Virus record (IMG/VR): IMGVR_UViG_2737471833_000010
Location: 1-27,813 of that record
Length of the DNA: 27,813 nucleotides
Direction: 5' to 3' (one strand)
Source of the DNA: a virus
Lineage: Duplodnaviria > Heunggongvirae > Uroviricota > Caudoviricetes
The notes under the pieces were generated by a model. It saw nothing but the letters and a program-made list of their open reading frames with translations. It searched no databases and had not been told where the DNA came from. The position numbers and the translations under genes were made by a program. Numbering within the stretch: the first letter of the stretch is position 1; each line of letters begins with the position of its first letter. This document shows positions 9,233-23,919 of the stretch, one piece after another.

Positions 9233-9505
9233 ATGCGAAACAAAGGCTTTAATCCACCTGATACACACAAAGAAGCTAAGCGTTTGCGCTTCCTTCGTTC
9301 CATTGATGAAAGAACTCAAATCTCTTTTGTGAAAGTTGCCAGAACTGAGCTTCTGAAGGCTGAGGCGAGGGCGTTGCTCCCGTCTCTACCAAAAGAGGAG
9401 GGATATACGTTCATTCCAAACGCATTTCTGGAAAAGCTGCTCAAAGAAGACATATCCGTAAGTCAGTTTAACGATGTTCTTAAGGTCTTTCGTCAAGGCA
9501 GGTAG
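9233..9505 (+). CDS. Hypothetical protein (90 aa) between cII and the replication initiator
   Basis: ATG at 9233 preceded by GAGGT. The ORF-track extension overlaps cII and is rejected. Confidence 0.5.
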   Translation: MRNKGFNPPDTHKEAKRLRFLRSIDERTQISFVKVARTELLKAEARALLPSLPKEEGYTFIPNAFLEKLLKEDISVSQFNDVLKVFRQGR

Positions 9506-9507
9506 TT

Positions 9508-10455
9508 ATGAGCAATACAGCAAAAATCTACGATTTCAGCGCCGCACACGAGCGCAGGAGCAACAGGATGGAGAACCAGAAAACTGGTTACATTCCGTTG
9601 TACCGGAGCATTCTGAAACAGTCATGGGCGAAAGATGTTTATCTTCGCACCCTGTGGGAAAACCTTCTCCTGAATGCCGCCAGAAAGCCATACAAAGCGA
9701 ATTTCAAAGGTCATGAATGGCATCTGCAACCCGGTCAACTGGTTGTGACAGCAGCTGATTTAGGTCTTCAGTTATGCGACAGGCATGGCAAGCCGGCAAG
9801 CCGTGATCAGGTTGAGCGGATGCTTCAGGTTTTTGTGAAAGAGGGGATGATCACTATTGATGGAGAGAAGCAAAAAGGTCGTGTGATCACCATCACAAAT
9901 TACCATGAATATGCTCAAAAAATGGACAATTCACCCGCACATGAAGCCGCACAAACAACCGCACATGATGCCGCACATGATGAAGCCAGTAATGGCGCGG
10001 CTTTCAGCGTACATGCCGCACATGAAAGCGCACATGAGGCCGCACAAACAACCGCACATCATGAACAAGAAGGTATTAACAAGAATATAAATAATACCCC
10101 CCTACCCCCCAATGGGGGAGGCGATGGGCAGGTTAAACATGAACGTCGCAAGGCAGAACGAATCGACTACGAATCCTTCCTGAACGCCTACAACACCGAA
10201 GTCGGTGACAGACTGCCACACGCTGTTGCGGTCAACGAGAAACGCAAACGCCGCCTGAAGAAAATCATCCCGCAACTGAAAACGCCAAACGTGGACGGTT
10301 TCAGAGCGTATGTCAGGGCGTTTGTACATCAGGCCAAGCCGTTTTACTTCGGAGACAACGACACTGGCTGGACGGCAGATTTTGATTACCTGCTGAGGGA
10401 AGATTCGTTAACGGGAGTACGGGAAGGGAAGTTTGCAGACAGGGGGATTGCATGA
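9508..10455 (+). CDS. Replication initiator, lambda O-like N-terminus with phage replisome-organizer C-terminal domain (315 aa)
   Basis: [10 protein letters not shown]... resembles the lambda O start MTNTAKI. Iteron repeats are embedded mid-gene, giving an [14 protein letters not shown] peptide repeat. Stop overlaps the helicase start (ATGA). Confidence 0.8.
9935..10063. repeat. Putative replication origin iterons: two blocks of four 12-bp direct repeats (CCGCACATGANN)
   Basis: Repeat starts at 9935, 9947, 9959, 9971 and at 10016, 10028, 10040, 10052, each with 12-nt periodicity. Followed by an AT-rich tract at 10064-10095. Lies inside the O-like gene, as ori-lambda does. Confidence 0.55.
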
Positions 10456-11828
10456 AACAGGATATCGAAGCGAGCGTTATCGGTGGCCTGCTGATTGGTG
10501 GATTAACACCAACTGCCAGTGACGTTCTGGCAACGCTGGAGCCGGAAGCGTTTTCAATTCCGCTCTACCGGAAAGCCTTCGAGGTTATCCGCAAGCAGGC
10601 GAGAAACAGAAACCTAATCGACGCGCTGATGGTTGCCGAGGCGTGCGGAGAGGAGCATTTCACGTCAATCCTGATGACCAGCAAAAACTGCCCGAGCGCC
10701 GCAAACCTGAAGGGATATGCCGGAATGGTCGCGGATAACTATCACCGCCGTCTGGTGCTGGAAATCATGGACGAAATGCGTGAACCAATTCAGAGCGGAA
10801 CCATCGACGCATCGAGTCAGGCGATGGACGAGCTGGTAAAGCGTCTTTCAGCCATCAGAAAGCCACGTGACGAGGTAAAACCTGTACGGTTAGGGGAAAT
10901 CATCACCGACTACACTGACACGCTTGACAGGCGTCTGAGGAACGGAGAAGAGTCAGATACCCTGAAGACCGGAATCGAAGAACTTGATGCCATCACCGGA
11001 GGGATGAACGCGGAAGACCTGGTGATAATCGCTGCTCGTCCTGGTATGGGGAAAACCGAGCTGGCGCTGAAGATTGCCGAAGGCGTTGCAAGCCGCGTTA
11101 TTCCTGGTTCTGACGTCCGGCGCGGGGTATTGATTTTCTCAATGGAAATGAGCGCATTGCAGATTGCAGAGCGAAGCATTGCCAACGCCGGGAGGATGTC
11201 GGTTAGCGTACTGCGAAATCCTGCATCGATGGATGACGAAGGCTGGGCGCGTGTTGCTAACGGCATGAGTCAGCTTGCAGATTTGGATGTATGGGTAGTC
11301 GATGCCTCGCGGTTATCGGTAGAAGAAATTCGCTCAATCGCAGAGCGGCACAAACAGGAAAATCCAAACCTGTCACTCATCATGGCGGATTATCTTGGCC
11401 TGATTGAGAAGCCGAAAGCAGACCGCAACGACCTCGCAATTGCTCACATCTCAGGAAGCCTGAAGGCGATGGCGAAAGACCTGAAAACGCCTGTTATCTC
11501 CCTAAGTCAGCTTTCGCGCGATGTTGAGAAGCGACCAAACAAACGCCCGACAAACGCAGATTTGCGTGATTCAGGAAGCATTGAGCAGGACGCAGACTCA
11601 ATCATCATGCTCTATCGGGAAGCGGTATATGACGAGAACAGTAGCGCCGCGCCATTTGCTGAAATCATCGTGACGAAAAACCGTTTTGGCTCACTTGGTA
11701 CGGTTTACCAGCGGTTCTGTAACGGACACTTTGTTGCATGTGACCAGGATGAAGCCAGACAGATTTGCACAGCATCAAATGCACCTGCTGCGCGTGGCAG
11801 ACGATATGCACAAGGGGCTGACGTATGA
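10452..11828 (+). CDS. Replicative DNA helicase, DnaB family (458 aa)
   Basis: N-terminal DnaB-like domain, Walker [10 protein letters not shown], and RecA-like C-terminal motifs (SMEMS, ...SQLSRD...). Translationally coupled to the initiator. Confidence 0.9.
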
Positions 11829-23324: not shown

Positions 23325-23919
23325 CCGTGAAATCCGTTGTTACAGCGGTGAGGTGCGTGCTGAGAGGCATGACGATAACCCGGCGCACATTATCGGTTAT
23401 GGATCGGTGTTTGACTGTCGTTCTGAGCTGATATTCGGTTCATTCCGCGAAATCATCCGGCCCGGCGCTTTTGACGATGTGCTTGGTGATGATGTACGCG
23501 CACTGTTTAACCACGATCCTAATTTTATTCTTGGGCGTAGTGCAGCAGGCACGCTGAATCTTTCAGTTGATGAGCGCGGATTGCGCTATGACATCCAGGC
23601 TCCGGAGACACAGACCATTCGTGATCTGGTGCTGGCCCCGATGCAACGTGGAGATATTAACCAGTCATCTTTTGCTTTCCGTGTCGCCCGTGACGGCGAG
23701 GAGTGGTATCAGGATGAGGACGGGGTTGTTATTCGCGAGATAACCCGCTTTTCCCGTCTGCTGGATGTCAGTCCTGTGACATATCCTGCCTATCAGGAGG
23801 CTGACTCGGCTGTTCGCTCCATGAAAGCATGGCAGGAGGCGCGCAACAGCGGCGCGCTACAGAAAGCCATTAATCAACGTATGGCGCGTGAACGCGTCCT
23901 GACCCTTCTTAACGCGTAA
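23317..23919 (+). CDS. Prohead maturation protease, HK97 family (200 aa)
   Basis: MNDREIRCYSGEVRAERHDDNPAHIIGYGSVFD... is typical of HK97-type prohead proteases. Lies between portal and capsid genes. Confidence 0.85.
   Translation: MNDREIRCYSGEVRAERHDDNPAHIIGYGSVFDCRSELIFGSFREIIRPGAFDDVLGDDVRALFNHDPNFILGRSAAGTLNLSVDERGLRYDIQAPETQTIRDLVLAPMQRGDINQSSFAFRVARDGEEWYQDEDGVVIREITRFSRLLDVSPVTYPAYQEADSAVRSMKAWQEARNSGALQKAINQRMARERVLTLLNA

Follow-up and report, generated by a model that had tools for sequence, protein, structure and literature searches.

In phages lambda and P22 and in Salmonella phage L, the replication origin has been assigned to repeats in the central part of the O/18 gene (PMC8022706; PMC7466680). 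Four repeats of ~20 bp were described for both lambda ori and P22 (PMC8022706), and an A+T tract lies inside O in lambda (PMC7466680). The putative origin of phage L in gene 18 was described as 'six imprecise repeats' (PMC8022706). The Shiga toxin (Stx) phages 933W and P27 carry six lambda-type iterons with demonstrated O binding, and replication of Stx phages has been linked to the expression of the toxin gene (PMC7466680). In this study, a comparable region was analysed in the 27,813 nucleotides of virus record IMGVR_UViG_2737471833_000010 (Caudoviricetes; this whole stretch is referred to as the window), where short repeats lie inside an initiator gene of the lambda O / P22 gp18 type. The segment 9935-10094 is very probably (at a probability of about 0.85, as judged from sequence comparison) the replication origin of a lambdoid prophage, located within the linker of its own initiator gene. 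The evidence consists of the anatomy of the segment, the family-wide conservation of its layout, a constraint acting on the DNA, the co-variation of initiator and iterons, and the module boundaries.

Anatomy of the repeat region

An earlier note on this DNA had claimed eight copies of (C/G)CGCACA in two blocks of four with 12-nt spacing, followed by an AT-rich tract, within an O-like initiator gene. Exact matching on the + strand reproduced the copies in full, with SCGCACA (S, C or G) starting at 9935, 9947, 9959, 9971, 10016, 10028, 10040 and 10052. On both strands of the 27.8-kb window 17 matches were counted versus 9.3 expected, and eight of these 17 are packed into 124 nt on one strand in a common register. 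Period-12 arrays were reported by Tandem Repeats Finder at 9935-9980 and 10015-10046; they are two of the three tandem arrays scoring at least 40 in the window, the third of which (a 13-nt repeat with 1.9 copies at 23838-23862) is unrelated. The repeat search of the region gave start-to-start spacings of 12, 12, 69 and 12. From the genome-wide 7-mer frequency, which allows an order-of-magnitude estimate, the probability that the 12-nt spacing arose by chance is negligible.

Between the final core of block 1 and the core that opens block 2 the distance is 45 nt, corresponding to a spacer of 33 nt, and the two blocks thus fall outside any single 12-nt register. Both blocks lie in the reading frame of the initiator, with the cores beginning at codon position 2. 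The units are direct repeats of 12 nt, and no inverted repeat was found within or between them. They therefore differ from the ~19-bp inverted-repeat iterons that define the lambda type sensu stricto, but probably function similarly. The order of the units is T,A,T,T in block 1 and T,T,A,T in block 2 (A being the CAAACAA unit), which suggests that the fourth unit came from different duplications in the two blocks; if so, the equal block sizes would not merely reflect one block copied onto the other. A true unit of 24 nt (pairs of 12-mers) was also considered, but it does not fit the relatives, most of which have three units in each block, and it was rejected.

The AT-rich tract of the earlier note was found at 10064-10094, directly after block 2. 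It is 81% A+T (19 A, 6 T, 4 G and 2 C), and no 31-mer of the gene is less stable than that at 10067, which is within the top 0.1% of the window. Although the tract is coding, zero polymorphic sites were found in it among 59 distinct near-identical sequences, and GAACAAGAA..AAT at the tract is kept across the iteron classes described below. A dyad in the adjoining G+C-rich junction (10105-10118) was considered as an origin hairpin by comparison with the dyad to the right of lambda's A+T tract, and this candidate was unsupported (fold z=-0.15 versus shuffled sequences).

The assignment of the gene as an O-like initiator was likewise borne out. Pfam PF04492 (Phage_rep_O) matched at amino acids (aa) 20-132 with 56.7 bits (E=3.6e-15) against a gathering cut-off of 28.7, and PHROG 345, 'replication initiation O-like', matched at E=6e-100; no matching family was found for the initiator in NCBIfam. 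A DnaB-like helicase gene follows. The repeats sit between the N-terminal domain of the initiator, which ends at ~9924, and its C-terminal module, which begins at ~10108. The features and their units are collected in Table 1.

Table 1. Positions of the features of the putative origin and of the genes around it (window coordinates).
Feature	Position	Strand	Description
Initiator gene, lambda O / P22 gp18-like, 315 aa	9508..10455	+	Open reading frame (ORF) with Pfam and PHROG matches; holds the repeats
N-terminal winged-helix DNA-binding domain	9568..9924	+	From MENQK; AlphaFold2 model; putative reader of the repeats
Iteron block 1	9935..9982	+	Four 12-nt units: CCGCACATGAAG, CCGCACAAACAA, CCGCACATGATG, CCGCACATGATG
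Inter-block spacer, 33 nt	9983..10015	+	Motif CCAGTAATGGCGCGGC at 9986-10001; independent of iteron class
Iteron block 2	10016..10063	+	Four 12-nt units: CCGCACATGAAA, GCGCACATGAGG, CCGCACAAACAA, CCGCACATCATG
A+T-rich, A-strand-biased tract	10064..10094	+	AACAAGAAGGTATTAACAAGAATATAAATAA; candidate DNA-unwinding element
G+C-rich junction, start of C-terminal module	10095..10120	+	TACCCCCC twice (direct repeat); CCCCCCAATGGGGG dyad
C-terminal domain of initiator, HK97-type	10108..10455	+	Putative helicase-recruiting domain; shared with HK97 O and S.Inf 5-2
DnaB-like replicative helicase gene (P22 gp12 / HK97 P type)	10452..11828	+	Partner of the initiator

Conservation of the layout and co-variation with the initiator

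Relatives were collected by a scan of one genome per bacterial species, by which 44 loci were obtained, 38 of them usable. The aligned set (n=43) contained the window, four phages and these 38 Enterobacterales prophages. A scan of IMG/VR returned only N-terminal domains (N-domains) of 98-100% identity, and its loci were used for polymorphism, the diversity being taken from the one-genome-per-species collection. All 43 loci align gaplessly as n x 12 nt, a 33-nt spacer, n x 12 nt, and GAACAAGAA... leading into the A+T tract. Thirty-seven loci have 3+3 units and five have 4+4; the remaining one, from a Sodalis metagenome-assembled genome (MAG; L119, 1836-2110), has 3+3 plus two additional upstream clusters of two units. 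The number of units is the same in both blocks at every aligned locus, and 3+4 was never seen in this set. The only relatives lacking the second block both have disrupted genes: Xenorhabdus ehlersii (L092, 1840-2060), with block 1 and the spacer only, and a Symbiopectobacterium MAG (L118, 1840-2060), with a single block.

Among the phages, Klebsiella phage 2b (N-domain 85% identical) has the 4+4 layout and the same iterons as the window, and in Yersinia phage vB_YenM_29.18 (75%) the layout is 3+3, its cores being CCGCACA, CCGCACT and CCGCGCA. Salmonella phage S.Inf 5-2 (47%) carries xCGAT(G/A)AACCAT repeats in a 3+3 layout with 12-nt spacing, and Enterobacter phage ENT1 (46%) carries G(T/A)CGA(A/G) units in the same layout. 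At the other end of the range, the array length is constant in the 79 near-identical IMG/VR loci, all of which are 4+4. Of 5,426 complete E. coli genomes, 278 (~5%) carried the segment comprising the N-domain and the repeats, usually once.

The constraint on the repeats was estimated from 128 units of 20 CGCACA-class loci. The information content is 1.8-2.0 bits at unit positions 2-7 (CGCACA) and 1.4 at position 8, versus 0.1-0.6 at positions 9-12. The third codon positions within the core (unit positions 2, 5 and 8) have 2.0, 1.9 and 1.4 bits, respectively, and the next codon has 0.1-0.6 throughout. Third codon positions in the core stay invariant where the peptide turns from PAHxxAH into EVTNEVTN or PDEPSEEP. 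Since the synonymous sites of the core are fixed and the neighbouring codon is free, the constraint acts at the level of the DNA and not of the peptide. The minor-allele counts of the 79 IMG/VR loci sum to 10 at core positions 2-7 versus 59 at positions 8-12. The linker peptides of the different classes are unrelated (PAHxxAH, EVTNEVTNQVTN, PDEPSEEPSG and PVEGSDEPPVE), with the period, the block size and the spacer retained. The same layout recurs in phage L with a period of 11 nt, and a codon repeat is therefore impossible there. The His/Ala-rich linker peptide of the window would thus be a by-product of DNA sites read in frame.

The spacer between the blocks is conserved in its own right. 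Its length and register are identical in all 43 loci whatever the iteron class, and phage L is alike in this respect. A motif with the consensus CCAGTnnTGnCGCGGC is matched exactly by window positions 9986-10001, its single occurrence in the window, and also at 31683-31698 of L131; in every locus it lies 15 nt past the last core start of block 1 and 30 nt before block 2. At some codons of the motif the third position is better conserved than the first two, and the amino acid varies. This third-position conservation, together with a register that is unchanged from class to class and also in phage L, suggests a role of the motif at the DNA level that would be common to all specificity classes. 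No DnaA box, consensus site of integration host factor (IHF) or GATC was recognised in the spacer by eye, which was not a systematic scan.

According to their cores, the 43 loci were divided into five classes: CGCACA (21 loci), CGCGCA/CGAGCA (10), CGAT[G/A]AAC (CGATGAAC; 4), GTCGAA/GACGAG (1) and AGGTAAC (7). These classes coincide with the groups of the N-terminal winged-helix domain. Between the CGCACA and the CGCGCA/CGAGCA loci only two of ~118 alignment columns discriminate perfectly. Domain residue 62 (ORF aa 82) is A/P in the CGCACA loci versus S in the CGCGCA loci, and domain residue 80 (ORF aa 100) is D in the former, H in the latter, and Q, K and K in the remaining classes. In overall divergence the CGCACA and CGCGCA/CGAGCA classes overlap, with identities down to 63% within the CGCACA class and up to 85% between the two. 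An AlphaFold2 model of the N-domain was built from an alignment of 26 sequences (mean predicted local distance difference test score, pLDDT, 82). Helices at 24-36, 62-68 and 79-91 and a beta-hairpin wing at 95-109 make up a winged helix-turn-helix (HTH) in the model, in which residue 62 is the first of helix 62-68 and residue 80 the second of helix 79-91, the recognition helix of the predicted HTH. A sequence search of the PDB with the initiator gave no match at E<=1. The co-variation fits the pattern expected if the N-domain reads the repeats.

In loci sharing the N-domain and the iterons, similarity stops right after the A+T tract, and the C-terminal domain and the downstream gene change together. 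An HK97-type C-terminus is paired with a DnaB-like helicase in the window, HK97 and S.Inf 5-2, and a lambda-type C-terminus with Phage_lambda_P in Klebsiella phage 2b and Yersinia phage vB_YenM_29.18. Conversely, the C-terminal sequence of the window is joined to different N-domains and iterons in HK97 O and S.Inf 5-2, and the G+C-rich junction travels with the HK97-type C-terminal protein module. The C-terminal part of lambda O interacts with P. Its N-terminal part binds the origin (PMC2629481), and the module organisation found here matches that of lambda O, with an origin-binding N-part and a partner-binding C-part. As a separate observation, most database relatives of 9568-9930 (P0001-P0072) are 'partial' proteins of ~146-211 aa, from contigs that stop at or just past the origin and the module junction; such breaks probably reflect assemblies failing where prophages share the downstream module.

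Origin model and alternative explanations

Binding, unwinding, recruitment of the helicase and origin activity are proposed here by homology with known initiators and comparison of loci. In the proposed mechanism, the N-terminal winged-helix domains would bind head-to-tail to the eight direct CCGCACA(T) cores, which are spaced by 12 bp in two arrays of four with the fixed 33-bp spacer between the arrays. Because 12 bp slightly exceeds one helical turn, successive initiator proteins would follow a gentle spiral about the DNA. Both arrays, together with the spacer, may then form a nucleoprotein complex analogous to the lambda O-some, by which the adjoining A-rich tract (10064-10094) would be destabilised or opened. 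The C-terminal domain of the initiator would bring in the phage DnaB-like helicase encoded by the next gene, and replication would start.

Several points weigh against this model. The conserved spacer motif is left unexplained by it. The Foldseek search with the N-domain model gave weak matches only, all of them to winged-helix DNA binders (best E=0.013, none <0.001). Few clades stand behind the co-variation of cores and N-domains, so part of it could reflect shared ancestry. The units are without the dyad symmetry of lambda iterons, and the lambda binding mode with O dimers is for this reason not simply transferable. No rep_origin was annotated in the near-identical records inspected, and no description of the origin of this allele was found in the full-text literature, an earlier mention in subscription journals being possible. 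The case for the window allele, as for every family member, is a comparative one.

Three other explanations were weighed against an origin. The repeats could be binding sites of the initiator that serve mainly for control (autoregulation, titration or handcuffing), with replication starting elsewhere. Such a use has precedents, since plasmid iterons serve in both initiation and copy control (PMC3401445), and cloned lambda iterons inhibit lambda replication in trans (PMC3349717). It is nevertheless unlikely here: the repeats account for two of the three high-scoring tandem arrays in the window, the remaining one being unrelated, they directly adjoin the least stable stretch of the coding sequence, and the order of iterons and then A+T tract, at the same position in the gene, matches that of lambda, where it is the origin. 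An explanation at the protein level, in which the repeats merely encode a His/Ala-rich linker for flexibility or metal binding and have no role as DNA sites, would account for the repeats being in frame and encoding a regular (P/A)AHxx peptide, and His-rich linkers do occur in other proteins. It is hardly credible in view of the invariant synonymous positions of the core next to free codons, the unrelated peptides encoded by other classes with the same 12-nt period, block sizes and spacer, and the phage L layout, whose 11-nt period yields no peptide repeat.

The region might also be chiefly a recombination junction with a slippage-prone linker of low complexity, conserved by frequent horizontal transfer. 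The swap of the C-terminal module immediately 3' of the A+T tract points in this direction, as do the many partial database proteins that end near the junction. Slippage, however, predicts variable numbers of units, whereas all 79 close relatives are 4+4 and the two blocks of every aligned locus have equal numbers; the fourth units of the window appear to stem from different duplications (T,A,T,T versus T,T,A,T), and the cores change between classes in step with the N-terminal domain. As an alternative function this is very improbable; as a side effect, recombination at the junction is compatible with the origin model.

With these explanations weighed, the replication origin remains the preferred reading. 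The 'origin-like iterons' of the earlier note are supported comparatively, with co-variation in five classes, invariant third codon positions and the 11-nt period of phage L all identifying them as DNA sites. Its proposal that the DNA repeat forces a His/Ala-rich peptide on the linker also agrees with the data, the peptide being as described and the synonymous sites of the core fixed. Its 'distinct' 12-bp, 2x4 geometry stands in part: the repeats are direct, have no dyad and are unlike those of lambda, but the family is usually 2x3 and a short-repeat origin had already been proposed for phage L.

A more specific reading is put forward tentatively and is rather doubtful at present. The family may represent an origin architecture of its own. 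Two arrays of equal size, made of monomer sites arranged head-to-tail and repeated every 11-12 bp, would lie on either side of an invariant spacer of 33 bp whose motif (CCAGTnnTGnCGCGGC) is independent of iteron specificity; two matching oligomers of the initiator, either trimers or tetramers, would form round a central element, and equal numbers of sites would be a functional requirement. If this were true, something shared by all classes, either a host factor or a second, conserved face of the initiator, would recognise the spacer element, the equal-number rule would be needed, for example, for symmetric loading of the helicase, and iteron specificity would be set, in a simple and transferable way, by the D/H/Q/K residue near the beginning of the recognition helix.

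Neighbouring genes and comparison with known systems

The gene order in the window is cI-like repressor, cro-like gene, cII, O-like initiator and DnaB-like helicase, and the initiator and helicase genes overlap by four bases. The helicase gene matched Pfam DnaB_C (E=9.5e-78) and the DnaB N-terminal domain (E=4e-13), and TIGR03600 phage_DnaB at E=7e-93, under the trusted cut-off of that model. An ORF of 90 codons (9233-9505) lies between cII and the initiator, at the place of HK97 gp53 / P22 orf48. Within the initiator gene, AGGAGCAACAGGATG (9553-9570) contains a Shine-Dalgarno-like AGGAG 7 nt 5' of the ATG of the conserved MENQK, and this segment is kept at the nucleotide level in nearly all of the 43 loci; the annotation of Klebsiella phage 2b begins the initiator at MENQK. 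The initiator may be produced from this internal start as well. In the leader of 20 residues, a solitary CCGCACA (9542-9548) was examined as a potential ninth site that might act in autoregulation. It was dismissed as an iteron because the match extends no further than the 7-mer and this leader recurs in a locus (L122) whose iterons are AGGTAAC. A second small period-12 repeat, TCAGAGCGTATG, is present with 2.1 copies at 10301-10325 in the C-terminal domain, where it encodes RAYVRAFV; HK97 and S.Inf 5-2 have it too.

The initiator is 98-99% identical to the O gene product of CUS-3, JEP4, Gally, Kapi1, HF4s and about fifty Stx2a-converting phages. Many of the Stx2a-converting phages share the module, as do P22-like phages, CUS-3 among them. 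The experimental work found on Stx-phage origins concerns the lambda-type O and its iterons. The principle is a textbook one, and iterons in an O gene would be expected by a specialist; as far as found, the two-block layout with 12-base units is a conserved and so far unstudied variant of it, and the window origin would belong to another specificity class of a family whose two-block design is not spelled out in the literature found. What is new, to a modest degree, is the conserved layout in two blocks with its equal-number rule, along with a spacer motif that does not depend on the class and the residues that are candidates for setting specificity. The family offers a compact set of natural variation, with five specificity classes, periods of 11 and 12 bp, 3+3 and 4+4 layouts and one or two candidate specificity residues, which is useful for work on the recognition of short direct repeats by a winged-helix initiator. 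It also illustrates clearly how a DNA element can impose the sequence of a protein linker, and the layout offers an easy criterion by which the origins of many enterobacterial prophages can be annotated.

Among the systems described so far, the putative origin of Salmonella phage L (GenBank MW013503, rep_origin 31650-31726), which is known from sequence, comes closest. Like the window, phage L has direct repeats (3+3), a 33-nt spacer with ACCAGTAATGACGCGGC, an A+T tract and a DnaB-like helicase gene. Its gp18 is a distant, full-length homologue of the window initiator (22% identity, pairwise BLASTP E=2e-9) and falls short of the threshold of Pfam PF04492. Phage L differs from the window in its TGTCCAACGGA units, which are 11 nt apart, in its core sequence, and in having 3+3 and not 4+4 units. 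The two-block architecture and the spacer motif are not described in the phage L paper (PMC8022706). A phage L-type two-block architecture was defined here from the 43 loci and phage L, and its equal blocks, 33-nt spacer, spacer motif and gp18 homology were all found in the window.

Lambda shares with the window an origin located midway along the initiator gene and flanked by a Phage_rep_O N-domain and a partner-binding C-domain, with the repeats 5' and an A-rich tract 3', and a module boundary directly after the A+T tract. A further link is provided by relatives of the window module that carry the lambda-type O C-terminus and lambda P. Lambda iterons are described as palindromic, and each of them binds an O dimer. 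The window, in contrast, has eight direct repeats of 12 bp (in the family usually six) with an 8-bp core and no dyad, arranged in two equal blocks with a conserved 33-bp spacer, and its partner is a DnaB-like helicase, as opposed to P plus the host DnaB. The origins of 933W and P27 resemble that of the window as lambdoid Stx-phage origins located inside O with a variable number of iterons, the window module being present in many Stx2a phages; their O and iterons are of the lambda type, whereas the window module belongs to another specificity class and geometry.

HK97 O, annotated as similar to P22 gp18, has the same C-terminal domain and DnaB-like helicase partner as the window, with repeats and then an A+T tract in the same place. 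Four GCTAA-type units spaced by 12 nt (TTAGCTAAAACA, GCTAATAAAACA, TTAGCCAAGTCG and GCTAATGGGTAT; L006, 8860-9030) are followed there by an A-rich tract with a 14-nt repeat and by a TACCCCC..GGGGG junction as in the window. HK97 O differs in its N-terminal domain, its single block and the lack of the 33-nt spacer motif. More remotely, and by analogy only, iteron plasmids and oriC use winged-helix or HTH initiators that assemble head-to-tail on direct repeats beside an A+T-rich unwinding element. Plasmid iterons, which are bound by Rep monomers, are ~17-22 bp long, and E. coli oriC has two arrays of closely spaced DnaA-box sites with a period of ~11 bp. The proteins of these systems are unrelated to the window initiator and their sites are non-coding, whereas the sites of the window are translated as part of the initiator itself.

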